Assembly: GCA_964383365.1 (NCBI GenBank)
Contig: CAYLHF010000012.1
Location: 8,745 to 72,744 of the forward strand
Source of the DNA: an uncultured Rhodothermales bacterium
GTDB lineage: Bacteria > Bacteroidota > Rhodothermia > Rhodothermales > UBA10348
Length of the DNA stretch: 64,000 nucleotides
Direction: 5' to 3'
Shown: positions 10,966-62,426 of the stretch, piece after piece
Layout: every line of letters begins with the position of its first letter
Numbering within the stretch: position 1 is the stretch's first letter
Notes under the pieces: generated by a model
What the model saw: only the letters and a program-made list of their open reading frames with translations
Told to the model about the DNA's origin: nothing
Databases searched by the model: none
Position numbers and translations under genes: made by a program

Positions 10966-10981
10966 TGGCACAGTATTAGCC
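10966..10981 (+). promoter_or_regulatory. Candidate sigma-54 (-24/-12) promoter upstream of the exopolysaccharide cluster
   Basis: The sequence is TGGCACagtatTAGCc. The -24 TGGCAC is perfect and the GG-N10-GC spacing is correct, but the -12 element is TAGC rather than TTGC. It lies ~45 nt upstream of ATG 11025. Confidence 0.4.
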
Positions 10982-12137: not shown

Positions 12138-12155
12138 CCGAATACGCACCTGGAA

Positions 12156-14738: not shown

Positions 14739-14811
14739 ATCCACATTTTCAGGGCATTCAGGCAACGGATTCCGGGCCGGGTCGGGTATAATAGCAAACA
14801 GGCAACATGGC

Positions 14812-16986: not shown

Positions 16987-17049
16987 CGAATTCGGATCAA
17001 GATTTTCTACATCGTGTCGATACCGAACGTGGTAAATCGGATCTAATTC

Positions 17050-19322: not shown

Positions 19323-19325
19323 CGG

Positions 19326-20489: not shown

Positions 20490-20512
20490 TATGGCTTTAG
20501 GAATCGGCATTT

Positions 20513-22147: not shown

Positions 22148-22167
22148 CGGACACTCCGGAGGCGACC

Positions 22168-43485: not shown

Positions 43486-43497
43486 AGTCTAATCAAT

Positions 43498-44463: not shown

Positions 44464-44493
44464 AGTAATAAATTAAAATCAGTGCGGGCCTGT

Positions 44494-45687: not shown

Positions 45688-45777
45688 GACTCACAGGCGA
45701 TTACGAATGATCATACGATCCGACCAAGAATATCAGATCTGTCGGACGAAATTCCTAATTCAGATCACCGCTCAACG

Positions 45778-46401: not shown

Positions 46402-46526
46402 TATTCTACCTCTAATTCCTTTGTAACGTTAGCCTATCCAGGCGAATATCTTTCGTTTGAAGGGTATCGCAGAATGTTCAGAGTATCAAATAGATCGGTC
46501 CTATTCGCGACATTTCATTACAAGAT

Positions 46527-46799
46527 TCATTCCGAATCTACATTCTCGGAGCGTCCCTTTACAAATTCGCGCCGCAAACCGACGAAGACATAGGTCAGTA
46601 CACTGGCTAATCCTAAAAATACGGGAACTGCTACAAGACTGATACCGATGCTCGCACCCAATGCGTCCTGATATCGGAGCGACAGAGATACCAGATTTAT
46701 CATCCAGATCGTTATTCCTCCGACGAAAAACCAGATCGCTGAGACGCTCGCTACCTGTAAAATGAAAATGAAAGGGGTATTTGGATCTGTTTTCTTCAT
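46527..46799 (-). CDS. Small two-TM membrane protein, ActD-position subunit of the quinone-module
   Basis: The 90-aa protein has two hydrophobic helices. Its start overlaps the NrfD-like gene stop by 4 nt (46796-46799). I recognise no family. Confidence 0.5.
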   Translation of the reverse strand: MKKTDPNTPFIFILQVASVSAIWFFVGGITIWMINLVSLSLRYQDALGASIGISLVAVPVFLGLASVLTYVFVGLRREFVKGRSENVDSE

Positions 46800-48127
46800 G
46801 ACACATCGGGTAGATAACTTTCAATTCTTTCGGATACTTCTTCCACACTTTCATCGCGACCTTCCTCTATTTCCCATACAGAAATCAGAGGGAAGACCTT
46901 GGAGAACAGCAAGAATCCGAGCATAAATACGGCAACGGCACCTGCGAACAGAGACCACTCGACGAGAGACGGGAGATAAGATCCTATGGGTAGATCCACT
47001 CTCGGGTTTGCGAGTGACGGAACTACGATGATAAATCGTTCCAACCACATCCCGATCACTACCGTGATGGAAGCGATCAGAATACCGGGAATCGTCTTGA
47101 GTTTCTTGAACGAGAGTATCGTCACGGGAATGATGAAATTGCACACCACCATCGCCCAAAAGTACACCGCAAATGGACCGGTAAATTTGTACCAGATAAT
47201 ATCCATTTCATGGGGCTCATTACCGAATACGCCTGTCAGGAATTCTGAGAACGTAAAGTAGAACCACAGGATCGACATGATGAGCAACAGACGACTCAAA
47301 TAATCGAAATGGATGAATTTCAGATACGCTTCGAAGTGATAGAGCTTCCGGAAAAATATCATCACGATCAGAAGGGCGGCAATTCCCGAGAAGATTGCTC
47401 CCACAACGAAATACGGTCCGAATATCGTACTGTGCCATCCCGGTTGGAGCGTCATCGAGAAGATATACGAGATGATCGTATGTACCGAGACTGCGATGGG
47501 GATGACCATGACCATCAAAATACTGATCGCACGATCGAGGATTTTGTGCTGATGAGGTGTTCCGGTCCAGCCCCAGGCCATAAACGTATAGAGTTTATTC
47601 AGCCGACCTCCTCGATCCCGAAGTTTTGCAATATCAGGAATCATGGGCAGGTACAGATAGACTGTGCTTGCTGTAAAATATGCGGTAACACTGGTAACGT
47701 CCCAGAGAAGTGGCGACTGCAAACGACCGACCGTGAACAGGTTCAGCATTCGGTCGGGACGCCCGAGATCCAGGATCGGATGAAGCCCCCCGATGGCCAG
47801 TACAATCGCTGTGATGACTTCTGCCATCCTCGTAATCGGTCGCCTCCACTCGGCCTGAGACAGCCGTAGTATCGCGGATATCAGCGTACCCGCATGACTA
47901 ATTCCGATGAAGAACACGAAGTTTACGATGTAGAACCCCCATGTCACGGGTTCATTCATTCCTGTAACACCGAGTCCGTATCGGATCTGGGTAATATACA
48001 TGTAGAGTGCCCAGACGATTACCGCCACGAGCACCACAACCGAAATGTAGAATCCTCGTCCCGTCTCATAAATCGGCCGGTATAGCGCGGCATCGGTGCC
48101 ATAGTCCTTTTTCTGTGTTTCAGCCAT
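46796..48127 (-). CDS. NrfD/PsrC/ActC-type integral membrane quinone-interacting subunit
   Basis: The conserved N-terminal region is GLGVTGMNEPVTWGFYIVNFVFFIGISHAGTLISAILRLSQAEWRRPITRMAEV. About 10 TM helices are predicted. Confidence 0.85.
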   Translation of the reverse strand: MAETQKKDYGTDAALYRPIYETGRGFYISVVVLVAVIVWALYMYITQIRYGLGVTGMNEPVTWGFYIVNFVFFIGISHAGTLISAILRLSQAEWRRPITRMAEVITAIVLAIGGLHPILDLGRPDRMLNLFTVGRLQSPLLWDVTSVTAYFTASTVYLYLPMIPDIAKLRDRGGRLNKLYTFMAWGWTGTPHQHKILDRAISILMVMVIPIAVSVHTIISYIFSMTLQPGWHSTIFGPYFVVGAIFSGIAALLIVMIFFRKLYHFEAYLKFIHFDYLSRLLLIMSILWFYFTFSEFLTGVFGNEPHEMDIIWYKFTGPFAVYFWAMVVCNFIIPVTILSFKKLKTIPGILIASITVVIGMWLERFIIVVPSLANPRVDLPIGSYLPSLVEWSLFAGAVAVFMLGFLLFSKVFPLISVWEIEEGRDESVEEVSERIESYLPDVS

Positions 48128-48129
48128 GA

Positions 48130-48813
48130 TTATTCTTTCTCCGCGAGATAGTAGACTTTGGGTTCTGTGCCCAGGTCCTCCATAACCCGGAGGGCACGTG
48201 TGCTGTGGGAACGCTCATAGACCTTGCTACTCTTGTCGTCCAGATCTCCGAATGTGATGGCGTCGGCGGGGCAGCTTTCCGCGCAGGCAGGGACGTATTC
48301 ACCGTCACGTACCTCGCGATCCTCCAGTGCAGCCTGTTCACGCGCCTTGATCAGACGGTGAGCGCAGAACGAACACTTTTCAACGACGCCCTTCATCCGG
48401 AGAGATACATCTGGATTATGGGTGGCATCCTGTGCTTCATTCCACTCAGGTTCATACCAATTGAATGACTTCGCCGTGAACGGACACGCCGCCATACAAT
48501 AGCGACATCCTATACAGCGGTTATAGATCTGAGCTACGAGCCCTTCGTCGTTTATGTAGGTAGCGTGAACCGGGCAAACACGCGTACACGGTGGATTATC
48601 ACAGTGGAAACAAAGACGAGGCACTCGTTTGGCGCTCATATCAGGATAGTCCCCTTCGTAGGCGGTCGTCATGTCCATCCAGAACATGGCACGACTCGAA
48701 TTCGCCTCCTCCGGGCTGACCACGGCTACATTATTCTCGATTTTGCACGCCGCGACACAGTCGCCACAGCCGGTGCACTTATCGAGATCTATGACCATTC
48801 CCCATTTAGGCAT
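48130..48813 (-). CDS. 4Fe-4S ferredoxin-type iron-sulfur subunit (PsrB/NrfC/ActB2-like)
   Basis: MVIDLDKCTGCGDCVAACKIENN and further Cys clusters are present (CFHCDNPPCTRVCP, CIGCRYCMAACP, CSFCAHRL...CAESCP). Confidence 0.85.
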   Translation of the reverse strand: MPKWGMVIDLDKCTGCGDCVAACKIENNVAVVSPEEANSSRAMFWMDMTTAYEGDYPDMSAKRVPRLCFHCDNPPCTRVCPVHATYINDEGLVAQIYNRCIGCRYCMAACPFTAKSFNWYEPEWNEAQDATHNPDVSLRMKGVVEKCSFCAHRLIKAREQAALEDREVRDGEYVPACAESCPADAITFGDLDDKSSKVYERSHSTRALRVMEDLGTEPKVYYLAEKE

Positions 48814-48855
48814 TGTGTGATCCTCTCGATTGCTTGCTAGGGTTTTTCATTTTCG

Positions 48856-51219
48856 TCAGGCTCTTTTCTTGATGCGAACCAGCGTGGATTGCGTGGCCGG
48901 TGTTCCGCCGAGGCGATCATATATTCCGGCCATAATAGCGTTCGGATTCTCGCCAAATCCATCGGCGTTCTGTCCGAAATTAGTGTGCCCCATACCGAAT
49001 GGAATTGCGACCGTGTTCGGGACAATTCCCTCGTGAATTTTTGCTTGGACCCGAACGGCTCCCTGTCTGGACTCGATCCATACCCAGTCACCATCCTGAA
49101 TGTCATTGTCAGCAGCTGTGACGGGACTCATTTCGACCCAGGTGTTCCAGTAGCATCTTACTGCCTGGCCCATCATTTCCTGAAGCATGCGATCATTAGC
49201 ACCCCGTCCATCTCGGTGCGTGAGCGTCTGAAATGTGATTAGATTCAGGTCATACCCGTCGCTCTCTATCGTCTCACTATGGGCTCCAGTCTCCAGTAGA
49301 TGCGCTGTCGTAAGATCGTATTTCCTCGATGACGTGTGGAATACCGGCGGTTTCTCGTACCGGACGGAATCGGGATTCCACCAGCCGCCCCTGTCGACCA
49401 ATTTTTTCCAGAACGAATCGAAGGAGCGCTCTCTTCCGGGAGTATGATTCGGTCGCGACGAACGATCCGACCAGAATTCCCCCGCGCTCTCAGACGCAAT
49501 CATTCCGGTACCGGATTCGAAGAGACCCCGGGTTTGATTTTTGATGGTTTCCTTCAGCGTTTTATATGGGTACGCTGCAGATACAGAGTCATCAAGCCGA
49601 TTCGCGATGTCAATCAGTACATCGGCAGGGGTTCTTGACTCATAGAAAGGAGCAATAACCGGCTGTTGGACACCCACATACGACATGGGAACCGTGGGAA
49701 CAGAATCGACGACACCCCAGGACTCCAGAAACGTGCTTGCCGGGAGGATGAGATCAGCATTTGCATTCGTTTCGTTCTGGAATACGTCAAAACTCACTGT
49801 CAGGGGTGTATTTCGAAGCAACGACTCGAAATCGTGATGACGGATCGAAGAAAACAACGGATTCCCACCAAAAAGGAACAGCACACTGACCGGATACGGA
49901 TCCTGAGCGCCGGCGTTGTTGATGAGTTCATCCGGGCTGAAGGCAACTGCCGGATAATCGCCCTTGGTGGAGCGACCAATCGGCAGGGCCTTGATACCCT
50001 CCCTAGCAATAGAATCAGGTTTTACGCTGGCAAAGGATGCAAAGGGAACGTCAGATGGTCGAACGACTCCGCCCTTCTTTCCAAGATTTCCCAGGAGCAC
50101 ATTCAGAGCGTGGACGGCGAGTGCCCCGGTTGTACCGTCAGTCGTAGAACGTAGGCCCTGGTCGCCCAGAATAATGGCATGATCGGCATGTCCGACCTCG
50201 CGCGCAATCGACTCGATCGTCTCCGATGGAATCCCGGTAAGCTCACCGACTTTCGCGGGATGATACGAGTCCATTACGATGGATTTGAATCCAGCGTGTT
50301 TTACACCCCGAGCGTCTTTCCAATCGTCAAAACCAACGGTTCTTTTGTCGACAAAAGATGCGTCATACAAATTGTCACGAATCAACACATGGGCTATACC
50401 CAGCGCAAATGACGCATACGTCCCTGGTTTGATAGGGACCCATTGGTCAGCATTCGACGCAGACAGATTCAGCCTGGCGTCAGCATGTATGATTCGTGCC
50501 CTAGATCCATCTTCGCGGTCCCTGGAACGACTGAATACCTTCGTATGGTATACGGGAGCATATCCCTCTTCAAGGTAATTGGCGCCCACGCTCAGTATGA
50601 CATCTGCATTTCCTGTGTCGTATGCCGGTAACGTACGTGTCCCTTCTGCCATCTCATGCGCCGCACCGGCAAAAACATCGTCAGCAAATCGATAATAATT
50701 TGGCGATCCAAACGCCTGCATGAATCGGTCAATATGCTGCTGCTCAAACGCCGATTCGTCGGAGCCGAGACAGACCAATTCTTCCGTCCTTTTCTCTCGA
50801 CGAAGTGTTGAGAGAGCTTCGTTAATCATATTGAGCGCCTCGTCCCACGAGATCTCCTCCCAATGACCATCTCCAGGTGATCCTACATGTCTCACTGGCT
50901 GCTTCAAGCGATCGGGGTTGAAGAGCATTCCGATCGAACTTCGGCCGAGCGGGCAAATTCCTCCGAGACTGATCGGATTCATCGGATTACCTTTGACCAT
51001 TATCGGGACATCGTCTATGAGGCGCACAGACAATCCGCATCCCCCCGGACATCGCCGGCAGATGGTATTCTTCCATGTCTCAATCCCTTTTCCCCTCTTG
51101 ACCTGCTCGACGAGTTCGTCCGGCACATCGATCATTTCATCGATACCAAATCCACCGAGAGCAATCGCTCCCGACACACCGCCCAGCAATCTCAAAAATT
51201 CGCGTCGCTGTATCTTCAT
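48856..51219 (-). CDS. Tat-exported molybdopterin-oxidoreductase-family (CISM) large subunit, PsrA/QrcB/ActB1-like; substrate and cofactor status unknown
   Basis: It has the twin-arginine signal MKIQRREFLRLLGG and an N-terminal Cys group C54-x2-C57-x3-C61...C89 (ICRRCPGGCGL...GGICPLG), which is typical of the FS0 [4Fe-4S] site. The length and overall pattern fit the family. Confidence 0.75.
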   Translation of the reverse strand: MKIQRREFLRLLGGVSGAIALGGFGIDEMIDVPDELVEQVKRGKGIETWKNTICRRCPGGCGLSVRLIDDVPIMVKGNPMNPISLGGICPLGRSSIGMLFNPDRLKQPVRHVGSPGDGHWEEISWDEALNMINEALSTLRREKRTEELVCLGSDESAFEQQHIDRFMQAFGSPNYYRFADDVFAGAAHEMAEGTRTLPAYDTGNADVILSVGANYLEEGYAPVYHTKVFSRSRDREDGSRARIIHADARLNLSASNADQWVPIKPGTYASFALGIAHVLIRDNLYDASFVDKRTVGFDDWKDARGVKHAGFKSIVMDSYHPAKVGELTGIPSETIESIAREVGHADHAIILGDQGLRSTTDGTTGALAVHALNVLLGNLGKKGGVVRPSDVPFASFASVKPDSIAREGIKALPIGRSTKGDYPAVAFSPDELINNAGAQDPYPVSVLFLFGGNPLFSSIRHHDFESLLRNTPLTVSFDVFQNETNANADLILPASTFLESWGVVDSVPTVPMSYVGVQQPVIAPFYESRTPADVLIDIANRLDDSVSAAYPYKTLKETIKNQTRGLFESGTGMIASESAGEFWSDRSSRPNHTPGRERSFDSFWKKLVDRGGWWNPDSVRYEKPPVFHTSSRKYDLTTAHLLETGAHSETIESDGYDLNLITFQTLTHRDGRGANDRMLQEMMGQAVRCYWNTWVEMSPVTAADNDIQDGDWVWIESRQGAVRVQAKIHEGIVPNTVAIPFGMGHTNFGQNADGFGENPNAIMAGIYDRLGGTPATQSTLVRIKKRA

Positions 51220-51247
51220 TTGTACTCTCTCTGATAGAAGGTGAACC

Positions 51248-51766
51248 TCATCGGTGGCAGGAAAGACAGTCGGTTTTCGCTTCCAGTTTTCGATGACAGT
51301 CCAGACATGCGTCCATCGAAAGTGGATAAAATGGAACCTCCGCGGGGGCCGTTAACTCACCCACGGGACCGTGGCAATTGGAACATTCCAGGTCGCCCGA
51401 AACAACATGTCGGCGATGCGAAAAGTAGACATGGTCTGGAACGGAATACACTCGCTGCCAATCGATTTCGGAGCCTGCCTCGATATGGGCAATCAGTTTG
51501 GCTTCTTCTGCAGAATCATCGGCGAGTGGATCCGAGTCATGACAGTCCAGGCAGACTTCCAGGTCAGGGAGCGTCGCCCTCGGAGACTCTTCTACCCGTT
51601 GATGACAATCCGTGCACTCGAGACCTTCCCCTTCCACATGAATATTGTGATTGTAAGCGATCGGCTGCACGACCGGATCAGGGGACGCAAAAATTGTCAA
51701 TCGCAGTACAAACGCAATGAGTAGGAACGGAATAGCAAAGCCGAAGACCTTCATTAGGGAAGACAT
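51248..51766 (-). CDS. Membrane-anchored pentaheme c-type cytochrome (cytochrome c3/ActA/QrcA-like)
   Basis: It has an N-terminal TM helix (VFGFAIPFLLIAFVL) and 5 CxxCH motifs (CTDCH, CLDCH, CSNCH, CLDCH, CLSCH). It is the first gene of the Mo/FeS/NrfD module. Confidence 0.8.
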   Translation of the reverse strand: MSSLMKVFGFAIPFLLIAFVLRLTIFASPDPVVQPIAYNHNIHVEGEGLECTDCHQRVEESPRATLPDLEVCLDCHDSDPLADDSAEEAKLIAHIEAGSEIDWQRVYSVPDHVYFSHRRHVVSGDLECSNCHGPVGELTAPAEVPFYPLSMDACLDCHRKLEAKTDCLSCHR

Positions 51767-51810
51767 TTCTGTTCGATCCGGTAAGTGAACGAGAATCTGA
51801 TTATCGAATC

Positions 51811-51850
51811 TGACCGGGGCGCTACACGAACCCGCGCAGCGCCCCGGTCA
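51811..51850 (-). terminator. GC-rich 13-bp hairpin between the EB_dh-like gene and the pentaheme gene (possible partial terminator/processing site)
   Basis: tgaccggggcgct (51811-51823) pairs perfectly with agcgccccggtca (51838-51850) around a 14-nt loop. The hairpin lies 27 nt downstream of the stop at 51877 on the minus strand and has no clear U-tract. Confidence 0.4.
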
Positions 51851-51876
51851 AATCGTCACGTGAATGACACGAGGCT

Positions 51877-54006
51877 CTACTTCAGCAGAACCATCTGACG
51901 GGTCTCTACACTCTTCTGAGCCATCAGCTGGTAGAAGTAGATCCCGGAAGCCAAGCCTTCTCCGGAGAACTCAACCTCGTACCGACCCGGAACCATATCG
52001 CGATTTACGAGCGTCTTGACGAGACGACCAAGCGAATCGTAGACATTTAGCGCGACGTGTTCTGAGTTCGATACATTGAAACGGATTCTCGTAACAGGAT
52101 TAAACGGGTTGGGATAATTCTGTTCGAGATCATACGTCACTGGAATCTCATCCGTAGCAAGTTCCTCTACACCCGTAATGGTAGAGAAGTCCAGGGTGTA
52201 AATGGTTCCATCAATGCCGTCGTTTGGATGCTCGTGTCCTTCGTTGTCGAAGATCTCATGGGTGAAATCTACGGTCCCGCCCGGAACGACTGCGAAGTCA
52301 TGCTCCGTACCGGCGTAGGCACGTTTGAATTCGACGGTCCACACACCATTTTTATAGCTACTGGATGTGGTAACGGATGCTCTGTCTCCATCGGGTACTC
52401 GCATGACGTAACCGGGAATTGTACTACCATTTACCCAGGCGGCATTCGGATCGAACGTCGTGGCCATGGACACTGCCGCCGACGAGTGAGCCGTCATGGC
52501 CGTCATCGCGGCGGCGTCCATCCCGAGGAATACCGGGCTTTCTGCCGGCCCGTTGGCCGCCATGAATTGTGGATTTCCATTGGCATCGGCCCCGTTGTCG
52601 GAATAGGCGCTCGTACCGCTGTCTCCATGCATGGTATCTGTTCCAACCCATTTATCATCGACATATCCCAGCGCTGTTCCGCCGCGAGCGGCCTTCCAGT
52701 GCCAGTTGTCTACGACACCGTTATTGGTTCTCATCACACCGTCAAAATGGCACATGGTTGTACAATTGGCGCCGTCAGTGCCGTTAAGTCCCATGTCGAA
52801 GATGAGTCCGAATCTATCTTCGTCGCCGGATTGTGTCCAGGACGTGCCATCGTACGCCCAGAGATGTTTATTAATGGACTCCGTCCCGGACTTATCGACC
52901 CACTGTGCGGACAGGTAGAAATCGTTCCCGTCGGCCATGGCATTCATCGTGACGCCATTGGCAGTGATGAGCGGCTGCGAGGTCCACTCACCCGGAGTGA
53001 CCGTACCATCCATTACCGGTGCTCCGCTGCCAACTACCAATCGCGTTGATCCTGTCAGTTGAGCGAAATCAAGCGTGTAGATGGTCCCGTCAACTCCATC
53101 GTTGGGATGGCTCCCTCCTTCATTGTCGAAGATTTCGTGCGTGAATGCCACGCTCCTACCCGGTGTAACCGTGAAGTCACCCGGAGATCCTGCATAAGAA
53201 CGTTTGAATTCGACCGTCCATACTCCATTGTCAAAAGTCGCCCGAGAAAGAACCGAAGCTCTGTCGCCCGACGGCACCCGGTTGATATATCCGGGAATTT
53301 TGGCACCGGCCGCCCAACCGGCATTCGGATCAAACGGAACAGCTATGGCTGCTGGAAGTGAGGTGTTCGCCTGCGCCAGGTCCTGTGCTGCCTGATCTTG
53401 CGTCAGATACGTGACACTCGTTCCCGGTCCACCCGTCGGCATGAAACTCGGATTTCCATTCGAATCGGACCCATTATCGGCATATGCACTGACGCCAGCA
53501 TCTCCGTGAAAATTATCGGTCCGAACATTTTTGTCATCGACGTACCCCATCGCCACACCACCACGTGCAGCCTTCCAGTGCCAGTTATCAGCGATGCCTG
53601 TATTGGTTCTCATCAGGCCGTCGAAATGACACATGGTCGTGCAACTCGCGCCGTCTGCACCGTTGAGGCCCATGTCGAATATGAAACCAAACCGATCTTC
53701 ATTTCCCGTCTGACTCCACGCGGTTCCGTCGTACGTCCACAGGTGTTTGTCGACGCTCATGGTATTCGTTTTATCCGTCCACTGCACCGCGAGATACAGA
53801 TCGTTTCCGTCCCCCATCGCGTACATCGTCACGTTGTTTGCCGTAACCAGGGCCGGGCCCGTGTATTCTCCCGAAGAGATAACGCCATCGAGTGTCGCGC
53901 TCCCGGGTGTGGCCGTCAGCGTGGTCTGAGCACTGGCATCGACTGCCAGAGCTGCGACGAAAACGGCGAATAGAAGTTGTTGTATATGTCCTCTCATTTT
54001 AGGCAC
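51877..54006 (-). CDS. T9SS-sorted surface protein with two tandem EB_dh/DOMON-like putative heme-binding domains, each carrying a CTTMCH motif
   Basis: It has a signal peptide (LLFAVFVAALAVDASAQ). An internal duplication covers aa ~29-320 and ~321-612, and each copy contains EDRFG.IFDMGLNG.DGA.CTTMCHFDG.MRTN.G..DNWHWKAARGG..GYVDDK, which is the EB_dh-like W.WKA signature. The CTTMCH codons are at 53626-53643 and 52747-52764. The C-terminus LEQNYPNPFNPVTRIRFNV...GIYFYQLMAQKSVETRQMVLLK is a T9SS CTD. The GTG at 54006 and the ATG at 53997 are both possible starts. Confidence 0.7.
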   Translation of the reverse strand: MPKMRGHIQQLLFAVFVAALAVDASAQTTLTATPGSATLDGVISSGEYTGPALVTANNVTMYAMGDGNDLYLAVQWTDKTNTMSVDKHLWTYDGTAWSQTGNEDRFGFIFDMGLNGADGASCTTMCHFDGLMRTNTGIADNWHWKAARGGVAMGYVDDKNVRTDNFHGDAGVSAYADNGSDSNGNPSFMPTGGPGTSVTYLTQDQAAQDLAQANTSLPAAIAVPFDPNAGWAAGAKIPGYINRVPSGDRASVLSRATFDNGVWTVEFKRSYAGSPGDFTVTPGRSVAFTHEIFDNEGGSHPNDGVDGTIYTLDFAQLTGSTRLVVGSGAPVMDGTVTPGEWTSQPLITANGVTMNAMADGNDFYLSAQWVDKSGTESINKHLWAYDGTSWTQSGDEDRFGLIFDMGLNGTDGANCTTMCHFDGVMRTNNGVVDNWHWKAARGGTALGYVDDKWVGTDTMHGDSGTSAYSDNGADANGNPQFMAANGPAESPVFLGMDAAAMTAMTAHSSAAVSMATTFDPNAAWVNGSTIPGYVMRVPDGDRASVTTSSSYKNGVWTVEFKRAYAGTEHDFAVVPGGTVDFTHEIFDNEGHEHPNDGIDGTIYTLDFSTITGVEELATDEIPVTYDLEQNYPNPFNPVTRIRFNVSNSEHVALNVYDSLGRLVKTLVNRDMVPGRYEVEFSGEGLASGIYFYQLMAQKSVETRQMVLLK

Positions 54007-54184
54007 CTCGTAGCGTGCGAAAAAATTTATGTAGTACTTACAGAATGGGATTCGAATGCGTGGTTTCCCGCTACAGACGGATCCGTGATTTCCACCCGAA
54101 TGGTACAGGCTTTTCTCACACGAAGATCGCGGGTGATGGACACACTTCGTGGCAGGTAAGCCTTAAGAACAATGTGAGTAAACA

Positions 54185-54225
54185 CCTGCGCTGTATGTAG
54201 GGGTTTTCCCTACATACAGCGCAGG
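54185..54225. other. Perfect 18-bp inverted repeat (stem-loop)
   Basis: cctgcgctgtatgtaggg (54185-54202), loop gtttt, ccctacatacagcgcagg (54208-54225). It lies between the stop of the 415-aa gene (54388) and the start of the EB_dh-like gene (54006). Neither side has a U-tract. Confidence 0.8.
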
Positions 54226-54305
54226 TCTGGCTGATCGGTAAAAGACACGTCGACGGACGTAACGCTCGCCGTGCCAGACTAATTATGCCAGAAATGCCCG
54301 GTACG

Positions 54306-54321
54306 TGCACTTTGCGTTCCC
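54306..54321 (-). promoter_or_regulatory. Weak candidate sigma-54 promoter facing the EB_dh-like gene
   Basis: The minus strand reads gGGAACGcaaaGTGCA. The GG-N10-GC spacing is correct, with GGAACG against the consensus GGCACG and GTGCA against TTGCA. It lies ~300 nt upstream of the start at 54006. Confidence 0.3.
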
Positions 54322-54387: not shown

Positions 54388-55602
54388 TTATGCTGCGCGC
54401 CGATCCGGCGAGGAAGGGCCACATCCTTCCACCCGGCGAAGGGTACTCTTTCTCCTGATATCGCTTGTTTTCCGCGAGACGAGGCGTTTCATATACGCCA
54501 TGATAGCCTCAGCCCCGCTGTGCCCGTGTGGATCTGATTCAATAACGGGAATACCCTCACGAATCCCCTCCAGATCGGCACCTATCGGACCCGATCCCGT
54601 GTTGACAATGGCGACAATGGGCACGCCGATCTCTTCGAGAATCTTCACACCTGTCGCCGCCGCGAGGGCCGTGGGAGCTAACAGTAAGACTCCTGATATT
54701 CCGGGGAGAGACGCCAGTTCGGTAAGAACGACCTGTGATTCGGTATTCAATATTCCGTCAGAAATCTGTCCGACAATCACGTCAGGCCGCGGAATGGAAG
54801 CATCTGTTATCAGCGTGTAAAATAGCTGAGCGACTTCTACAGGTCGTGCTCCCCGGGTCGAAGGGAATCCATATTCGGCGAGATCACGAACGCTCGTGGC
54901 CGAACTGGATAGCATTTCGTCCAGATCGGGTGAACTCATTTCTCCCGTCAGACGACACATGGAGGCCCGAACCTTGTGTTCGGCCAGATGATTCACGAGT
55001 CCCGCGCTGGATTCGGTCAGGCCCTTCTCTGTGTCTGTTCCCACGGTAAGGAAGATGGGCGGAAGCGCGACCCGATTACGTGCCGGTTCAAAAAAGAGAT
55101 TCTTCAGGTTGATTCTGGAGCCTGCCTCGTCCCCGAGCACACCGCGCAATACCACGCGTGTCGGTGTTTGCTCTATCGCGTCGGGCAGTCGTCCAACGAT
55201 CCCTTCTTCCGACCACATCTCAAAGAAGCCTTCATTGGTAATCGGGAGCCGTTTTCCGCTCTTCTCCTGTTGTCCGATAATACCGATAATTACGTCACCG
55301 ACATGGAGTCGCATCCAGGCGCTGCTCTTTGTTCGGACATGGGCGATGTCGCCTACCGAACCAACTTCGACAATAACGACATCTCCAGGCCTGAGCGGGG
55401 GACGGTTCTTAATGTCGAGTTGTTGAAAAAGTCGTTTACTCTGCAGACTGCGACACGCCCAACTCCACCGTGTTCTTCCAGTTGCGTTCACACAATTCTG
55501 ACTTTTAACCAGCGTTCGCCGATCCATCTCGGAAGCGGTCGTGCCGGAGGGGATCATGAATCGAGTCTGTGCAGTTACGAGTGGTAATGATTTGTTTGTC
55601 AT
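54388..55602 (-). CDS. Hypothetical protein (about 400 aa), no family confidently recognised
   Basis: This is a long, clean ORF co-directional with its neighbours. ATG 55602 is preceded by gagg, and the ORF track uses GTG 55635. Only faint resemblance to alpha/beta nucleotide-binding-type proteins is visible (IFLTVGTDTEKGLTES..., Gly-rich C-terminal half). Confidence 0.5.
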   Translation of the reverse strand: MTNKSLPLVTAQTRFMIPSGTTASEMDRRTLVKSQNCVNATGRTRWSWACRSLQSKRLFQQLDIKNRPPLRPGDVVIVEVGSVGDIAHVRTKSSAWMRLHVGDVIIGIIGQQEKSGKRLPITNEGFFEMWSEEGIVGRLPDAIEQTPTRVVLRGVLGDEAGSRINLKNLFFEPARNRVALPPIFLTVGTDTEKGLTESSAGLVNHLAEHKVRASMCRLTGEMSSPDLDEMLSSSATSVRDLAEYGFPSTRGARPVEVAQLFYTLITDASIPRPDVIVGQISDGILNTESQVVLTELASLPGISGVLLLAPTALAAATGVKILEEIGVPIVAIVNTGSGPIGADLEGIREGIPVIESDPHGHSGAEAIMAYMKRLVSRKTSDIRRKSTLRRVEGCGPSSPDRRAA

Positions 55603-55873
55603 GGTTCGCCTCGAAATATTGGGAACGCAATTCACTCCATGACGAACTTCATGCCAAAATAAATAATTTAATTATTTGTCCCTTTTCAGGCCCTTGTAGT
55701 TGTTTACAAGGATTTTACATACTTTTTATGTGACTCACTGACACACGGATTAACACCGCTTGTATCAACGATCTGTCTCAATGAAACAGCCGGGTGTACC
55801 GTCGACGGAGAGATTGCGGGAACGGACAGAGAACGAGCGTCCGTCCAAAGAAGTAGGACCGTTGAATCGGGGC

Positions 55874-57562
55874 TCAGACCTGATCCAGCTTGAACTCGGT
55901 CAGCCTGCGATAGAACGTCGCCCGAGATATGCCAAGCAATTTGGCGGCCGCTTTGCGGTTGCCCTCCGTGTGCCGAAGGGCCGCCAGGATACGATCACGC
56001 TCATCGTCGGGTAATCCGTCAGGAAGCAAATCGGCCGCCACCGACGTGCGAACCTCCGGCGGGAGCGAATTCGCCTCGATGATACTCCCGGGAGTATGAA
56101 TCATTGCGTATTCAATCGCATTGGCAAGTTCGCGCACGTTTCCCGGCCAATTGTACTCCAGCATGCAACGGACCGCCGATTCACCGAGTGTGTCAATTTC
56201 TACTCCTGATTTTGCCGATAGGCCACTCAGGAAGTGGTACGCAAGGAGTGGAATATCGCTTCTCCGTTCCCGGAGAGGAGGCAGCTCCAGGCGGGCGACT
56301 CGGATGCGGAATAACAGGTCCTGTCTGAAGGTCCCGTTCTCGACCTCGGTGGGAAGATGTCGGTGCGAAGCGGCAACAATACGAACATCTACCTTTCTTG
56401 CCTTGGTCTCACCGACACGCGTAACGGTTCGTTCCTCCAGGACGCGAAGCAGATTCACCTGAATATCCAACGGAATATCTCCAATCTCATCCAGGAACAA
56501 GGTTCCCCCGTTCGCAGCGCCAAAGTAGCCGGGTTCGTCCGAAATGGCACCGGTGAATGAGCCTCTCTTATGTCCGAAAAGCTGACTCGCTACCAGCGAC
56601 TCTGTGAGTGCACCGCAGTTCACTGCTACAAAGGGCTTGGATGCCCTGGCACTGGCATCGTGAATGGCACGAGCAACGAGTTCTTTTCCGGTCCCCGTCT
56701 CTCCCTCTATTAAGACAGTAGAATCGAAGCGTGCGGCCGACTTGATTTGATCAAAAATGCGATTCATCGGCTCACTGTCGCCGATAATGTCTCCGCCTTT
56801 GTTTTGTCGGGCCAGCTGTCGTCGGAGGTCATGGACCTTCGTAACATCGTAAAAAACGAACAAGCGCCGTCGCTTTTCCTGAGGATCTCTGCGGATGTCG
56901 AGTTCCATGTGATAGGATTGGCCGTGGTCGAGAGAAATCCTCGTAGGAATACGCGTCGACGTTCCGTCTTCAGAATCAAATTTAGCGCGTACGCGCGAGA
57001 TCGTCTCCGACTGAAAGGGCAGCACTCGATCCCACATAAGGCCCAGGGCATCAGACTCATTGATTCCGAGTAATCGTCGAGCTACCTGACTGACGAACAC
57101 GATTCTACCGTCCGCGTCCGTAATTACCGTCCCGATTCGGAGTCCGTCGAGCAGAAGCTGCAAATTATCCCGATCCCGGCGAAGTAGTCTGTGAGATCTG
57201 TATTTGGATAATGCAACCTCGATATTCGCACGTAACTCGCTCTCCTGAAACGGTTTGATCACATACCCGAATGGTCCGGTGGCGTTGGCTCTATTGAGCG
57301 TTTGTTCGTCTCCAAAAGCCGTGAGAAAAACAACAGGCACGTCTTGTGACTCCCTGATCAACTGCGCAGCTTCGATCCCATCCATCGTCCCTTCCAGATG
57401 GACATCCATGAGGATCAGGTCCGGCCGTAGAGCCGACGCTCGCCTGACGGCCTGCTCGCCTGAAACAACTTTATCGACCACCTGATACCCCAGCTGCTGC
57501 AGGTGGTATTCCAACTCCAGAGCGGTTATCGCTTCATCTTCAACTATCAGTACCTTTACCAC
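55874..57562 (-). CDS. Sigma-54-dependent response regulator (REC-PAS-AAA+-HTH, NtrC family)
   Basis: The REC domain is VLIVEDE...DLILMDVHL. The AAA+ sigma-54 interaction domain has GETGTGKELVARAIH, GHKRGSFTGA and LFLDEIGD. The C-terminal Fis-type HTH is NRKAAAKLLGISRATFYRRL. Confidence 0.9.
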   Translation of the reverse strand: MVKVLIVEDEAITALELEYHLQQLGYQVVDKVVSGEQAVRRASALRPDLILMDVHLEGTMDGIEAAQLIRESQDVPVVFLTAFGDEQTLNRANATGPFGYVIKPFQESELRANIEVALSKYRSHRLLRRDRDNLQLLLDGLRIGTVITDADGRIVFVSQVARRLLGINESDALGLMWDRVLPFQSETISRVRAKFDSEDGTSTRIPTRISLDHGQSYHMELDIRRDPQEKRRRLFVFYDVTKVHDLRRQLARQNKGGDIIGDSEPMNRIFDQIKSAARFDSTVLIEGETGTGKELVARAIHDASARASKPFVAVNCGALTESLVASQLFGHKRGSFTGAISDEPGYFGAANGGTLFLDEIGDIPLDIQVNLLRVLEERTVTRVGETKARKVDVRIVAASHRHLPTEVENGTFRQDLLFRIRVARLELPPLRERRSDIPLLAYHFLSGLSAKSGVEIDTLGESAVRCMLEYNWPGNVRELANAIEYAMIHTPGSIIEANSLPPEVRTSVAADLLPDGLPDDERDRILAALRHTEGNRKAAAKLLGISRATFYRRLTEFKLDQV

Positions 57563-57586
57563 TATCCTTCTCCGACTGGTCGTCGA

Positions 57587-60500
57587 TCAGTGAGTACCCA
57601 TTTTTTGCCTGACCTCATCCTCCGATACGGACCCATGAATCGAAACGACTGGAAAAATGATGTCAAAACGGGCACCCTGAGGACCTGACTTCCGTGTTTC
57701 AGCTATCGTAAAACGACCGCCCAGACGCGAGACCAGACCTCTTACAAGATTCAGTCCAAGAGACGCCTCGGTGTGCGTTGCATAATCGTCTGACAGTCCC
57801 GCTCCGTCGTCGGATACCGTGAGACGATAAAATTCCTGTTCACGCTCCATACGGATTTTAATCGTGCCCCCTTCGGAATTATCTGGAAAGGCATGCTTCA
57901 GCGCGTTTGACACCAGTTCTGTCAGAATCAACCCGCAAGAGATAGCCCTGTCTACGTCCATATAATGTATGGGACACTGAATCTGAATAAGAATGTTTCT
58001 GTTTTGCGCATCATAGGATACGAGCAGTTGCTCCGTAATACCTCTAAGGTAGCCGTCAAAATCCAACTCGGCCAGATTGTCAGACCTGTACACTCGTTCG
58101 TGGATCGTAGAAATCGAATAAATTCGATCCCGACATTCGTCAAACAGGCGTTTTGTCGCATCGTCACTAACCTGGCGAGACTGCAAGCGAAGAAGACTCG
58201 AGATCATCTGCAGGTTATTCTTGACTCTGTGATGGACCTCCCGGAGTAGAATATCTTTCTGTTCGAGAGAATCCCTGAGCTCTTCGGTTGTGGCCTGAAG
58301 TTCATCGGTCGCCGTCTCAAAATCATGGGTTCTCGCAGTTACCTCCTTCTCAAGAATTTTCTGCCTGTGACGGAGACTCCTGACCCGAACCCTATGTCCG
58401 AACGCAATAGCTCCGGAAAAGAGTAGACCGACGATTATCCAGAAGAATATCGTCTGGTAGAAGAACGGTTCGACCGTGAACGAAATGGAAGCTCCCTCTC
58501 GATTCCAAACGCCATCATTGTTGGATGCCATTAACTCGAACGTATACGTACCGGGAGCCAGATGAGTAAATGTGGCAGACGTTTCATTGTCAGCATTTAC
58601 CCATACATCCTCGTAACCCTCGAGTCGATATCGGTATGAAACCGTATTCGGGTCAACCAGACTCAATCCGGCATACGCTATCTCGATTCTCTTGACACTC
58701 GGAGATACCTCGACCCCTTTTCTGAGATCTGCCCGAATATCATCCAGATAGACGCTCTCGATAACGACGGGAGGAATCGTCTCATTCCGTCTGAGATTTG
58801 TCGGATTTACGACGGCTACGCCGGAGACTGTCGGAAACCACAGGCGTCCATCGGAACCACGCCAACCTGCCGGCTGAACCCCACCATTTACCTCGCGAGT
58901 TCGGAGTCCGTCGTCGGTACCATAGATCGCGTTGCCTACCCGGTCGGCTGCTCCACGTCCCACGTCGTCGAGATCGCGTTTAGAAACTGAAAACACGCCC
59001 CGATTACAACCCATCCACAGGTTGCCGTTATCATCTTCGAGAATTTGAAAAATTTTATCGTCGAACAGCCCCTCTCTGGATCCGAATGTCAGGAAGCGAT
59101 TGTCCTTAAATCGAGTCAAGCCGCCACCGTACGTTCCTATCCAGAGCGTACCGTCCTGATCCAGGTAAAGGGCAGATATGGTGTTACTCCCGAGTCCCGA
59201 ATCGGTCGTAAACGACGTAAATTTGCCGTTATTGAAGAGATTGAGCCCGTCTTCGTAGGTTCCTATCCAGAGCTCACCGTTCGGGCTCTCTGCAATCGCT
59301 GTTACCGAATTACCCGACAGCCCATCGGCAGTCGTATACGACCGGATAGATGACCCGTCAATAACAGAAAGTCCGTTGTCGGTACCTACCCAGAGGCGGC
59401 CATCAAATGACGTGTACAACGCATAAACGGCGTTACTGGCCAACCCGTTAGTCGACGTGTAGGACCGAATTCGCCGGTCTTTCCAGAGAGTGAGCCCGGC
59501 GTCCACCGTTCCAATCCAATATGCTCCGTTCGGGGCGCCGGCTATACTCGTGACCACGTTACTCGGTAGTCCGGACTCGGTCGTGATCGATGTCAGACTC
59601 GATCCAACTAATTTGGAAATTCCACCACCGAATGTGCCAACAAGAATGGCACCGGCTCTGTCCTCAAAGACTGTTGATACGGCGTTGGAAACAAGTCCTT
59701 CTCGCTCTGACCACGTCGTAAATGCTCCGTCACGTAGCCTGTTGAGTCCACCGCCACCGGTTCCTATCCAGAGACTTCCCTCTCGATCTTCCATCACGGA
59801 GAGTACGCGCCCGTTGGAGAGACCTTCCTCCGGCGTGAAGGTATCCATCGAGCCATCATGATATCTGGCCATTCCAGTATGGTCCAGGCCCAGCCAAATG
59901 GACCCGGAACCATCTTCAACAATAGACCACACGACATCTTCAGGCCACCCGTTGGACGGGTCAAGATGCCGTACATGCTCTCCTTCGATTCTCATCAACC
60001 CCGAGTGTGTCCCGACCCAGACACGATCTTCCCGGTCGATATAGAGTTCCTGGACCAGCGACCCCGAAACGCTTCGGATCTCATGGGGTGCCTGGTCCGC
60101 TCCGACGTGCATTTCTGCCAGGCCCTGATCCGTTCCGATCCATAATTCATCGCTCGCCGAAAGTGCGATCGTCTGGACAAGATTCCCTGGAAGCCCCTTC
60201 GACGTATCGAACTTCGTACAAACATCCTGGACGCATGAAAGCAGACCATTTTTACTCGTGCCCAGAAATAGAGTACCATTCGATGATAGTTCTATATCAT
60301 TGATTCGAACGGACCCGAAAGATGTCAGGGGCATATAGTTTTGGACGACGCCATCCCGATAATACAGGACGCCGGCACCGTCCGTCCCAATCCATATTCG
60401 CCCGTCTGCACCCTCTTTCAGGGCGAGAACATTATGACCTCGCTCGAATGCCAGCGTATTTCTTCCGTTATACACTGTAAACGTGCGACCATCGAAGCGA

Positions 60501-60721
60501 GCGAGACCTTCTTCGGTGCCTAACCACAGATATCCGTTCGAAGATTGGATGAGGGCATGAACTGTATTCTGAGGTAGGCCTTCGTCGTACTGCCAGACAT
60601 CGTGTAAAAGCTGGGTGATGGCCTTCTGCGGATCCAGAGGTTGAAACAATCCTGTTGCCGACAGTCTTACGGGCTGGGTGAGACTGACGAGGGCGACGAC
60701 AGCAGATAAGACTTTATTCAT
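57587..60721 (-). CDS. Sensor histidine kinase with Reg_prop beta-propeller repeats, Y_Y_Y domain and HisKA_2-type transmitter
   Basis: Propeller repeats (DG.LWIGT..GL) are followed by YRYRLEGYEDVW, a TM helix (IFFWIIVGLLFSGAIAF), a coiled coil, LLREVHHRVKNNLQMISSLLRLQ (HisKA_2/HWE-like H-box) and an ATPase region (ELVSNALKHAF, DDGAG). It ends 24 nt upstream of the regulator gene. Confidence 0.85.
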   Translation of the reverse strand: MNKVLSAVVALVSLTQPVRLSATGLFQPLDPQKAITQLLHDVWQYDEGLPQNTVHALIQSSNGYLWLGTEEGLARFDGRTFTVYNGRNTLAFERGHNVLALKEGADGRIWIGTDGAGVLYYRDGVVQNYMPLTSFGSVRINDIELSSNGTLFLGTSKNGLLSCVQDVCTKFDTSKGLPGNLVQTIALSASDELWIGTDQGLAEMHVGADQAPHEIRSVSGSLVQELYIDREDRVWVGTHSGLMRIEGEHVRHLDPSNGWPEDVVWSIVEDGSGSIWLGLDHTGMARYHDGSMDTFTPEEGLSNGRVLSVMEDREGSLWIGTGGGGLNRLRDGAFTTWSEREGLVSNAVSTVFEDRAGAILVGTFGGGISKLVGSSLTSITTESGLPSNVVTSIAGAPNGAYWIGTVDAGLTLWKDRRIRSYTSTNGLASNAVYALYTSFDGRLWVGTDNGLSVIDGSSIRSYTTADGLSGNSVTAIAESPNGELWIGTYEDGLNLFNNGKFTSFTTDSGLGSNTISALYLDQDGTLWIGTYGGGLTRFKDNRFLTFGSREGLFDDKIFQILEDDNGNLWMGCNRGVFSVSKRDLDDVGRGAADRVGNAIYGTDDGLRTREVNGGVQPAGWRGSDGRLWFPTVSGVAVVNPTNLRRNETIPPVVIESVYLDDIRADLRKGVEVSPSVKRIEIAYAGLSLVDPNTVSYRYRLEGYEDVWVNADNETSATFTHLAPGTYTFELMASNNDGVWNREGASISFTVEPFFYQTIFFWIIVGLLFSGAIAFGHRVRVRSLRHRQKILEKEVTARTHDFETATDELQATTEELRDSLEQKDILLREVHHRVKNNLQMISSLLRLQSRQVSDDATKRLFDECRDRIYSISTIHERVYRSDNLAELDFDGYLRGITEQLLVSYDAQNRNILIQIQCPIHYMDVDRAISCGLILTELVSNALKHAFPDNSEGGTIKIRMEREQEFYRLTVSDDGAGLSDDYATHTEASLGLNLVRGLVSRLGGRFTIAETRKSGPQGARFDIIFPVVSIHGSVSEDEVRQKMGTH

Positions 60722-60923
60722 AGCTATAGGTACGCGCTACAAAATGACGGAAACCGGTAATTTCCGATCACAAAAACCAATCCAAATCGATCTTTAATAG
60801 AAATTTAATTTTGAATCAACAGAAATGGATGGGATGTGAAGGATAATATAGATTCTATTCCGTATTTACCGTAGCAGGCCAATGAAAGAGCGTCCTACCG
60901 TGCCACCCCCACCGTTTTACTTT

Positions 60924-60939
60924 GGCACCGCTTTTGCAA
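60924..60939 (+). promoter_or_regulatory. Consensus sigma-54 (-24/-12) promoter of the S8 protease gene
   Basis: TGGCACcgcttTTGCA is an exact match to TGGCAC-N5-TTGCA. It lies ~40 nt upstream of ATG 60980, in the divergent intergenic region shared with the kinase/NtrC-type regulator operon. Confidence 0.8.
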
Positions 60940-60979
60940 GTTCAGCCTGCCCCTTCGTTCGAAAGAACCGTTGACCGTT

Positions 60980-62353
60980 ATGAACAAGCAGAGAAAGTGG
61001 GTTCTCCACGGAACCCTCCTCATCACGTTCCTGCTGACATCGCGATGCACTGACCGTGCTCCGACGTCTGCCATGGAATCTGACCCGGTATTCTCCGTCG
61101 AGAGTACTGCCAAGACTCGCCATATGAACCTCCTCGGGACGTCCTTCGATGCTCTCGGGAAGGGCTCAGGCACGGCACAAATAATCGTCAAATTTTCCAA
61201 CCCTACGCTTGATGCGAATGGTTGGCTTCGTCGCTATGGATGGCTCAGGCGATACGGCTGGCTGCGACGTCATGACGTGACAGGATCCATAGTCGATCTG
61301 GGTGTGGCCGCGACGATGAATAAAAAAGATATTCGGAAGGCCCTCGGAATCGGAGATCATGAAGACGCGCTGGCTACAGCCATCGAGTTGTTGTCCGGAG
61401 ATCCGGATGTGAGTCTTATCGAACCGGATATTCCGGTGTCCGGTCCTGACGGCGGGTTCTCCGGAGCGAAGATGAAAGACCAGTATATCTCGTGGGGGAT
61501 CCGTGATATCGGAGCGATCGGAGGGTCTGACGGAGAGGATCAGGATGACGGCGATGATGAGGATCGGGACGAGATGGATGATGTGGAAGACGTAAGCGTT
61601 TTCGTTCTCGATACGGCATTTGGCAAAGACGATCTTAATCTGAAAGAGGAGCGTATTTTCAGTAACGGTAAGGGGCCTAAATACTTCACACACGGCTATC
61701 ATATTGCGGCGACAATCGGAGCAAAAGACAATGACAAGGGTGTTTTGGGCGTTGCTCCAGGTGTGGAAATGAACAGTTTTGTTGTTCTCAATGCGGCGGG
61801 GAAAACAGATGAATCCGTGGTCATTCAGGCATTGAATGAAGTCATGGCCTATGCCGCGTCGAACGGCGACAAGCATTCGAATCCCATCATTGTCAGTCTC
61901 AGTCTCGGGGAGAACATCCATTCAACAGAGGCTACGCTTCTCGATGACGCTATCACGGACGCAGTAGCCATGGGTATCACCGTGGTTGTCTCGGCAGGTA
62001 ATGACGGCGTCGATGCCGCTACGGTCACACCCGCCCATGCATCCGGAGCCATCACAGTCGGTGCGTATGATCATGATCACGACTGGGCATCGTTTTCGAA
62101 CTATGGTAAGACCGTCAATATCGTAGCTCCCGGAGTCGATGTCGTTTCTCTGGGACGGATCAAAAAGGGACGGACGGAACTGACTATCGCAACCGGCACA
62201 TCCATGGCGGTACCCTATGTAGTCGGTGCCGCAGCTCGTTACCTGAGTGAGCACCCGGGAGCCGACCGTGAGGAAGTCCTCAACGCCCTGATGAGCTCAC
62301 CGATCTCCGGTCCAGATGGTGCAAGTTATCCTATGGTCACCGTCAGAGAGTAG
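60980..62353 (+). CDS. Subtilisin-like serine protease (peptidase S8) with unusual N-terminal region
   Basis: The catalytic triad contexts are VFVLDTAF (Asp), HGYHIAATIG (His) and GTSMAVPYVVGAAA (Ser). The N-terminal signal-like segment is WVLHGTLLITFLLTS. The pro-region contains GWLRRY GWLRRY GWLRRH and an acidic tract GEDQDDGDDEDRDEMDDVED. I saw no T9SS CTD. Confidence 0.85.
   Translation: MNKQRKWVLHGTLLITFLLTSRCTDRAPTSAMESDPVFSVESTAKTRHMNLLGTSFDALGKGSGTAQIIVKFSNPTLDANGWLRRYGWLRRYGWLRRHDVTGSIVDLGVAATMNKKDIRKALGIGDHEDALATAIELLSGDPDVSLIEPDIPVSGPDGGFSGAKMKDQYISWGIRDIGAIGGSDGEDQDDGDDEDRDEMDDVEDVSVFVLDTAFGKDDLNLKEERIFSNGKGPKYFTHGYHIAATIGAKDNDKGVLGVAPGVEMNSFVVLNAAGKTDESVVIQALNEVMAYAASNGDKHSNPIIVSLSLGENIHSTEATLLDDAITDAVAMGITVVVSAGNDGVDAATVTPAHASGAITVGAYDHDHDWASFSNYGKTVNIVAPGVDVVSLGRIKKGRTELTIATGTSMAVPYVVGAAARYLSEHPGADREEVLNALMSSPISGPDGASYPMVTVRE
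61220..61273 (+). repeat. Three tandem 18-nt units encoding GWLRRY/GWLRRY/GWLRRH with divergent codons
   Basis: The units are ggt tgg ctt cgt cgc tat / gga tgg ctc agg cga tac / ggc tgg ctg cga cgt cat. Every degenerate codon position differs between copies while the peptide is conserved. Confidence 0.95.
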
Positions 62354-62385: not shown

Positions 62386-62426
62386 TTGAGCCGCTCTCGA
62401 CTGAGTCGAGAGCGGCTCAATTTTTT
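62386..62426 (+). terminator. Rho-independent terminator of the S8 protease gene
   Basis: A perfect 16-bp stem, ttgagccgctctcgac (62386-62401) / gtcgagagcggctcaa (62405-62420), has the loop tga and is followed by TTTTTT (62421-62426). Confidence 0.9.

Follow-up and report, generated by a model that had tools for sequence, protein, structure and literature searches.

A divergent locus of an uncultured Rhodothermales bacterium in which a two-component, sigma-54-dependent switch probably controls an exported subtilase

The stretch of 64,000 nucleotides analysed here, referred to below as the window, comes from an uncultured Rhodothermales bacterium (assembly GCA_964383365.1, contig CAYLHF010000012.1) and carries an S8 subtilase gene, divergent from an operon encoding a propeller-type sensor histidine kinase and a response regulator. 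This locus is probably a two-component, sigma-54-dependent switch for the exported subtilase, a proposal built on a promoter motif, on domain architectures and transcription-unit boundaries, on the conservation of the module in other genomes and on an enrichment of sigma-54-type motifs in the protease subfamily. The circuit type itself, in which a two-component system with an enhancer-binding protein (EBP) acts on a sigma-54 promoter, is well known and ordinary, and its assignment here is a routine, well-supported prediction; the part worth following up is a recurrent propeller-sensor/subtilase cassette with rewired outputs. The components of the locus are the following:

60923-60938, plus strand: sigma-54 (-24/-12) promoter motif TGGCAC-cgctt-TTGCA (TGGCACCGCTTTTGCA), read directly, exact consensus
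60980-62353, plus strand: S8 subtilase gene, 457 amino acids (Peptidase_S8 PF00082, E 1e-32)
62386-62420, plus strand: intrinsic terminator (16-bp stem and T-run), closing the protease transcription unit
60722-60922, no strand: divergent regulatory region, about 200 bp between the kinase operon and the promoter
57587-60721, minus strand: sensor histidine kinase, 1044 amino acids (Reg_prop E 9e-60, Y_Y_Y E 1e-18, HisKA_2, HATPase_c)
55874-57562, minus strand: response regulator/EBP, 562 amino acids (Response_reg, PAS, Sigma54_activat, AAA_lid_14, HTH_8)

The promoter motif, with its GG at 60924-25 and its GC at 60936-37 (spacing 10 nt), is intergenic and lies on the same strand as the protease gene, with 42 nt between its end and the ATG at 60980; in its favour, the same intergenic region contains no E. 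coli-type sigma-70 match. The first-pass annotation had already recognised an exact consensus about 40 nt before this start codon, and was right on both counts, but its coordinates (60924-60939) lay one base too far to the right. When both strands of the window were searched for TGGCAC-N5-TTGCW with zero mismatches, this site was the sole match; dinucleotide shuffles of the window gave a mean of 0.01 exact matches, and one shuffle in 100 contained any. At up to two mismatches the window holds 20 matches against 19.9 expected, so that weaker matches are uninformative alone and the exact match is the only informative one. Among other near-consensus matches, one with a single mismatch at 40949 was rejected, since it lies inside an open reading frame (ORF). 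Taking C60937 as -12, the transcription start is predicted near 60949, with a leader of about 31 nt, and the gene's own terminator makes the protease unit monocistronic.

The regulator gene begins 24 nt past the stop codon of the kinase gene. Its product consists of a REC domain (PF00072, residues 4-114, with D53 within LILMDV), a PAS domain, which could add cytoplasmic input, an AAA+ domain (PF00158, E 2e-67) with GETGTGKE as Walker A, GTLFLDEIG as Walker B and the loop GSFTGA, an Ala to Ser variant of GAFTGA, and a terminal HTH_8 domain (PF02954, residues 519-557). Judged on these elements, it has every sequence feature of an EBP, and domain and motif searches agree with the earlier description of the divergent operon as a Reg_prop/Y_Y_Y kinase with a REC-PAS-AAA+-HTH activator. 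The NCBIfam equivalog models for AtoC, NtrC and ZraR score it at 331-377 bits against cut-offs of 559-760 (AtoC 377 against 714, NtrC 357 against 559), none of the cut-offs for NtrC, AtoC, ZraR, GlrR, PrsR and LuxO is reached, and the protease and the kinase likewise reach no NCBIfam equivalog cut-off. Orthologs of the regulator, 50-65% identical, are many, and carry names from Rhodothermales, Salinibacter and Longibacter, which puts the window within or close to the Rhodothermales.

The kinase is made up, in this order, of a signal peptide, a Reg_prop double propeller, a Y_Y_Y domain, one transmembrane segment (about residues 762-785), HisKA_2 (HHRVKNN) and HATPase_c, after which it ends with neither a REC nor an HTH_AraC domain. 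Compared with the PDB, its sensor domain matches 4A2L (E 8e-65) and also 3V9F and 3VA6 (range to 2e-25), and its core matches the HWE/HisKA_2 kinase EL346 (4R39, E 4e-19); the NCBIfam PhyK model gives E 7e-44 and 150 bits against a cut-off of 750. The view of this protein as a glycan-type sensor stands as far as the fold goes, which is homologous to that of the sensors of Bacteroides hybrid two-component systems (HTCS), but the fold is all that the label was drawn from: the recurrent partner is a protease rather than a glycan-utilisation locus, and the S8 gene next to the kinase has no SusC/SusD pair at its flanks.

Alignment of the protease with 20 homologues (A1) shows no variation at the triad D211/H238/S408 or at the oxyanion N341. 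The catalytic domain shares about 35% identity with subtilisin-type S8A enzymes, the closest solved structures being Savinase, subtilisin Carlsberg and proteinase K. It had been called a secreted protease, and a signal peptide does point to export, but Cys23 coincides in the alignment with the canonical lipoboxes of homologous proteins (LTGC, LAGC, ASGC) and no type IX secretion system (T9SS) C-terminal sorting domain was detected in the protease, so that it is exported and probably lipid-anchored rather than demonstrably secreted. In a collection of 5.8 billion proteins its best match is 40% identical, with no close relative, and about 22 proteins make up a distinct S8 subfamily without the Pfam I9 domain. 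The I9 model (PF05922) is likewise undetected in the window protease; the AlphaFold2 model (predicted local distance difference test (pLDDT) 77.9, predicted template modelling score 0.80) folds residues 65-149 into a beta-alpha-beta-beta-alpha-beta domain, in which pLDDT is about 77-94. Residues 177-198 form an acidic disordered insert.

The prodomain of this enzyme contains a tandem six-residue repeat, GWLRRY x3 (61214-61270, residues 79-97), which forms helix 1 and strand 2 of the I9-like fold in the model. Repeats that fit x-[VIFL]-L-x-[RK]-[YHF] occur in two to five copies in the A1 homologues and in four of the loci fetched for comparison, designated here by L and a number (L091, L093, L173 and L004), for example as NFLKRH x3 in L091 and RFLQRY x3 in L173; four homologues carry instead a 10-residue unit, YGITRRVLEE, in five to 10 copies. 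Copy number and sequence differ between species, but the place within the prodomain is constant. The idea that the repeats are released as signal peptides, suggested by their dibasic flanks (GWLRR|Y, NFLKR|H), was discarded: many homologues have ERY, DRY or TRY, so that the dibasic pair is not conserved, and the model puts the repeats inside the prodomain fold.

The arrangement of an S8 gene divergent from a propeller-HisKA_2 kinase and regulator is also found in three other genomes, with proteins 38-61% identical to those of the window. The full module is present in L091, the Rhodothermales metagenome-assembled genome GCA_017642665.1 (kinase 43%, regulator 61%, protease 42% identical), in L093 (kinase 46%, regulator 59%, protease 38%) and in L173 (regulator 60%, protease 41%). 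Moreover, L091 keeps TGGCACCTGCTTTGTA, with one mismatch (TTGTA), as far from its protease ATG as the window motif is from its own, and L173 has TGGTACGGTCATTGAA, with two mismatches, 93 nt upstream of the protease ATG.

Sigma-54-type motifs are also met across the protease subfamily as a whole. In a separate clade, comprising L003 (with three tandem protease genes), L084 and L087, GGCAG/GGCGC-N5-TTG stands 35-37 nt before the corrected ATG, and GGC and TTG are invariant islands in the alignment of the upstream regions (A2). Of the 15 subfamily genes, 11, representing seven of 11 lineages, have the relaxed pattern GGYRS-N5-TTG within 200 nt upstream, against a background of 0.033 per 200-nt region in the same loci; the resulting lineage-collapsed P of ~1e-8 belongs to a pattern defined post hoc, after eight of its sites had been seen. 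Among the seven regions outside the definition of the pattern, three contain it (L001, L086 and L088; P ~1e-3).

These data suggest the following chain of events, in which the steps, the binding sites and the ligand are inferred. An extracytoplasmic cue would be perceived by the periplasmic double-propeller/Y_Y_Y domain of the kinase, whose HisKA_2 core would autophosphorylate and pass the phosphate to Asp53 of the co-transcribed regulator. The activated regulator, as an AAA+ ring, would assemble at sites upstream of the promoter, within the divergent region of 200 bp, and, by ATP hydrolysis and through its GSFTGA loop, would remodel the sigma-54 holoenzyme and open the closed complex at 60923-60938, so that the protease gene would be transcribed as far as the terminator at 62386-62420. 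That the pair drives the protease gene through this promoter, as the first-pass annotation had proposed, is supported by comparative genomics, by the features of the regulator and by the L091 motif, not by experiment. The presence of rpoN in the source genome is implied, only indirectly, by the intact activator gene. The divergent region offers several candidate elements, the first three of which are present as described earlier:

60793-60817: AT-rich intergenic stretch
60748-60766: palindrome CGGAAA-N7-TTTCCG with an ACCGGT core at 60752-57, candidate activator site
60848-60858: intergenic palindrome ATAGAtTCTAT
60755-67 and 60859-71: inverted 13-mers CGGTAATTTCCGA and TCCGTATTTACCG, 91 nt apart, candidate activator sites

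The HTH domain of the regulator is nearly identical among the four orthologous loci (GNRKAAAKLLGISRATFYRRL). ACCGGT is present in both the window and L173, and CGGTCCTCGT in both L173 and L093; the two are weak candidates for activator sites.

Besides the post hoc definition of the relaxed pattern, several observations weigh against the proposed circuit. No alignment of the four orthologous intergenic regions was obtained (A4), and they share neither a 7-10-mer nor a common activator site, so the sites within 60722-60922 remain candidates only. Upstream of the L093 protease gene no recognisable -24/-12 motif was found, and in L091, L173 and L087 the GC of the -12 element is replaced by GT or GA, which may reflect lineage-specific tolerance or weaker promoters. 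The regulator orthogroup also occurs without the protease, in L095 together with a propeller-HisKA_2 kinase and in L092 paired with a non-propeller HAMP-PAS-HisKA_2 kinase, and its targets are therefore not fixed. Finally, a scan for the RpoN-box peptide found no match in the window or in any of the 175 fetched loci.

Some further elements were observed in the upstream and intergenic regions of the comparison loci. In L093, the sole orthologous module without a recognisable -24/-12 motif, a 30-nt direct repeat (TTTGTATATTGCAGGCCCCGTCGGTCCTC x2, about 2519-2578) lies beside the kinase start. In the 75% GC genome of L095, TGGTGCCAGAGTTGCA (6852-6867, plus strand) stands 59 nt before the start of the kinase/regulator operon, with no protease neighbour, and there this operon may itself depend on sigma-54. 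In the GC-rich clade, about 25 nt separate the -24 element from a conserved palindrome upstream, TGCCyCA-N3-TGAGA (L003 4740-4990, 6857-7107 and 9008-9258; L084 9890-10140; L087 3031-3281), and a second one, GTGAGAC-N3-GTCTCAC, about 190 nt upstream in the same regions; both may be sites for an unlinked activator. Furthermore, a 21-nt unit containing GGGCGGGAGCGTAGCG is present in four tandem copies at L003 8764-8842, between the second and third protease genes.

The association of the protease with a propeller sensor extends beyond the orthologous modules. Nine other loci of the subfamily were considered, independently of the regulator search and chosen only by protease similarity and size of contig, and in seven of them a propeller sensor gene is adjacent: a Reg_prop sensor lies divergent and directly upstream in six (L001, L003, L084, L085, L086 and L089/90) and convergent and directly downstream in one (L088), and none was found within the short flanks of L087 and L004. 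The outputs of these sensors differ, being a class III cyclase in L003, HisKA-HATPase-REC-cyclase in L084, HisKA-HATPase-REC-HisKA-HATPase in L086 and a HisKA kinase in L085; in L003 and L084 a GAF-domain kinase gene follows directly after the protease gene or genes. A contig search with the window protease alone gave no match; a contig profile search with alignment A1 gave 80 loci, with only L004 belonging to the subfamily, and the other 79, reused as a control for other S8 subfamilies (1.3 Mb), contain no propeller-sensor gene. The cassette sensors are 30-35% identical to one another and 34% identical to a second propeller kinase of the window (24861-28103), which has no protease; being no closer mutually than to this kinase, they do not demonstrate a shared ancestry. 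The idea of a third conserved gene in the cassette was rejected, as the sorting domain is all that the T9SS proteins encoded near the protease in the window, in L001 and in L087 have in common. In the searchable literature, no earlier account of Reg_prop or Y_Y_Y sensors with sigma-54 or with a protease, nor of the recurrent cassette, was found.

Tentatively, the conserved unit might be, instead of the sigma-54 circuit, a cassette in which an HTCS-like propeller sensor is joined to a lipoprotein subtilase, distributed across several lineages like those of the FCB (Fibrobacteres, Chlorobi and Bacteroidetes) group and acting for protein much as a polysaccharide-utilisation locus does for glycans. 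A basal level of surface protease would free peptides or a protein fragment, which would be perceived by the propeller sensor and lead to more protease. The output of such a cassette would have been rewired repeatedly, to HisKA_2 and a sigma-54 activator in the window, to a class III cyclase and a GAF kinase in L003 and L084, and to a multi-step phosphorelay in L086.

The same recurrence bears on an alternative that overlaps the sigma-54 switch and is not exclusive of it, and that we regard as possible rather than probable: the sensor and the protease may be partners at the protein level, the protease making the ligand of the sensor or cleaving its periplasmic domain, with transcriptional control as a secondary or feedback arm. 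The adjacency in seven of nine loci includes class III cyclase, histidine kinase-REC-cyclase and histidine kinase-REC-histidine kinase outputs, which are unable to act directly on a neighbouring promoter, and since the pairing persists with such outputs the protease may be tied to the input side. The 79 control loci without a propeller sensor point the same way, and the Prc-VgrS pair of Xanthomonas is a reported precedent for cleavage of a histidine kinase in the periplasm (PMC6237974). On the other hand, the cassette sensors are no closer to each other than to the protease-less kinase. The cyclase loci L003 and L084, with their sigma-54-type motifs and GAF kinase, fit a longer regulatory chain equally well; such a chain, for example from cyclase to GAF kinase to an unlinked activator and a sigma-54 promoter, may exist and would be compatible with an input-side role of the protease.

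It is unlikely that the promoter is sigma-54-dependent but fired by another EBP, the adjacent pair controlling its own operon or the gene just downstream. The wide distribution of the regulator orthogroup in Rhodothermales, sometimes without the protease (L092, L095), the position of TGGTGCCAGAGTTGCA before the kinase gene itself in L095 and the sigma-54-type motifs of cyclase and hybrid-sensor loci that have no adjacent EBP would all agree with such an arrangement, but of the four other loci that combine a propeller-HisKA_2 kinase with this regulator, three have the divergent protease, and in the window neither the kinase operon nor the downstream gene has a sigma-54-like motif in front of it.

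The consensus of Bacteroidota-type primary promoters is TAnnTTTG. That the sigma-54 motif is a chance or non-functional match, the protease being transcribed from a housekeeping promoter such as an FCB-type -7 box (TACTTTGG) overlapping the -24 element, is very improbable: it is favoured by the L093 ortholog without the motif and by the fact that a scan of the promoter region with the E. coli sigma-70 consensus, which gave no match, did not cover TAnnTTTG-type promoters, but it has against it the 0.01 exact matches expected per window, the promoter-like position and orientation of the site, the enrichment of the motif across the subfamily and the adjacent gene for a cognate activator.

The sigma-54 switch thus remains the preferred explanation for the protease gene, but its extension to the redox locus further along the minus strand, put forward in the first-pass annotation by way of a weak sigma-54-like site at 54306-54321, was abandoned. 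This site (GGGAACGCAAAGTGCA, minus strand) has three mismatches to the consensus, no better than chance, and is judged not to be part of the system; a doubtful ORF of 102 amino acids encloses it, a 19-bp hairpin follows about 80 nt further on, and about 300 nt separate it from the EB_dh gene. With that hairpin in between, and with no redox genes following the regulator in the orthologous loci L091, L093 and L173, control of the redox locus by the regulator is not supported, nor did we find other evidence tying the cluster to the sigma-54 circuit.

The gene directly downstream of the regulator (54388-55635, minus strand, 415 amino acids) has no Pfam or NCBIfam match; its product is weakly similar (26% over 174 amino acids, E 2e-10) to that of the gene at the same position in L091 (12429-13013, plus strand), and no counterpart was found in L173. 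The hairpin, a perfect 19-bp stem (ACCTGCGCTGTATGTAGGG / CCCTACATACAGCGCAGGT, about 54184-54226, minus strand) 150 nt past the stop codon of this gene, is probably its terminator; an Rfam scan of the whole window, hairpins included, found no known RNA. The redox cluster proper (42484-54006, minus strand) comprises genes for an EB_dh-domain protein that bears a T9SS sorting tail, for several multihaem c-type cytochromes and for a molybdopterin oxidoreductase accompanied by 4Fe-4S and NrfD subunits; the oxidoreductase is QrcB/PhsA-like, though below the NCBIfam cut-offs, and the cluster may be an extracellular or quinone-linked electron-transfer module.

Elsewhere in the window, TGGCACAGTATTAGCC (10966-10981, plus strand) matches the -24 half perfectly and keeps the GC of the -12 element, and an NAD-epimerase gene has its ATG 44 nt further on; it may be a second sigma-54 promoter, but a match with two mismatches is at chance level alone. 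The NAD-epimerase gene opens an exopolysaccharide operon of about 14 kb (11025-24707), which encodes a Wzz/tyrosine-kinase-like protein, a flippase, Wzy, WecG, GT4, a sugar transferase, a sulfatase-family protein and a deacetylase, and behind which lies the second propeller/Y_Y_Y kinase mentioned above. Further upstream, a 22-23-nt unit (cgatagccatcgtgcgttaggt) is tandemly duplicated at 10509-10553 (plus strand), over the stop codon of an amidase gene with a T9SS tail (8890-10527).

The interest of the locus lies, in the first place, in a clean promoter/activator pair in a phylum whose sigma-54 regulons have barely been charted. Up to now, to our knowledge, propeller sensors of the HTCS type had been linked with glycans; their repeated pairing with one subtilase subfamily points to the possible sensing of proteinaceous substrates, and if the protein-utilisation reading is true, the HTCS-type sensor fold gains a non-glycan class of ligand. 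Moreover, the occurrence of the same sensor-target pair with three signalling chemistries provides a natural example of output rewiring, and the control of extracellular proteolysis bears on carbon and nitrogen turnover by FCB-group bacteria.

When the components are compared with known systems, the protease shares with the S8A/I9 proteases (Savinase, subtilisin Carlsberg, proteinase K, aqualysin) the intact Asp/His/Ser triad, the oxyanion Asn and the predicted beta-alpha-beta-beta-alpha-beta prodomain, but differs in that the Pfam I9 model is not detected in it, and in its six-residue prodomain repeats, its lipoprotein-type Cys and its acidic insert at 177-198. The kinase, for its part, has the HisKA_2 and HATPase_c core of the HWE/HisKA_2 kinases EL346 (4R39/4R3A) and PhyK; these are cytoplasmic light or stress sensors with non-EBP partners, whereas the window kinase has a large periplasmic sensor and an EBP as partner.

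The periplasmic Reg_prop double propeller and Y_Y_Y domain are shared with the HTCS of Bacteroides thetaiotaomicron (BT4663-type; 4A2L/4A2M, 3V9F, 3VA6), and in both cases, which belong to the FCB group, the sensor gene adjoins a degradative gene presumed to be its target; the window kinase differs in not being a hybrid (it has no fused REC/AraC), in an output that would pass through a separate sigma-54 activator and in having a protease as neighbour instead of a SusC/SusD locus. Finally, the chain from a kinase to a REC-AAA+-HTH_8 regulator and from there, by way of upstream sites, to a -24/-12 promoter is that of NtrB/NtrC-glnAp2, DctB/DctD, ZraS/ZraR and AtoS/AtoC, in which, as in the window, the regulator gene adjoins the target; the locus described here is set apart from them by the PAS domain between REC and AAA+, by a HisKA_2/HWE instead of a HisKA kinase core, and by a target that would be an exported subtilase.

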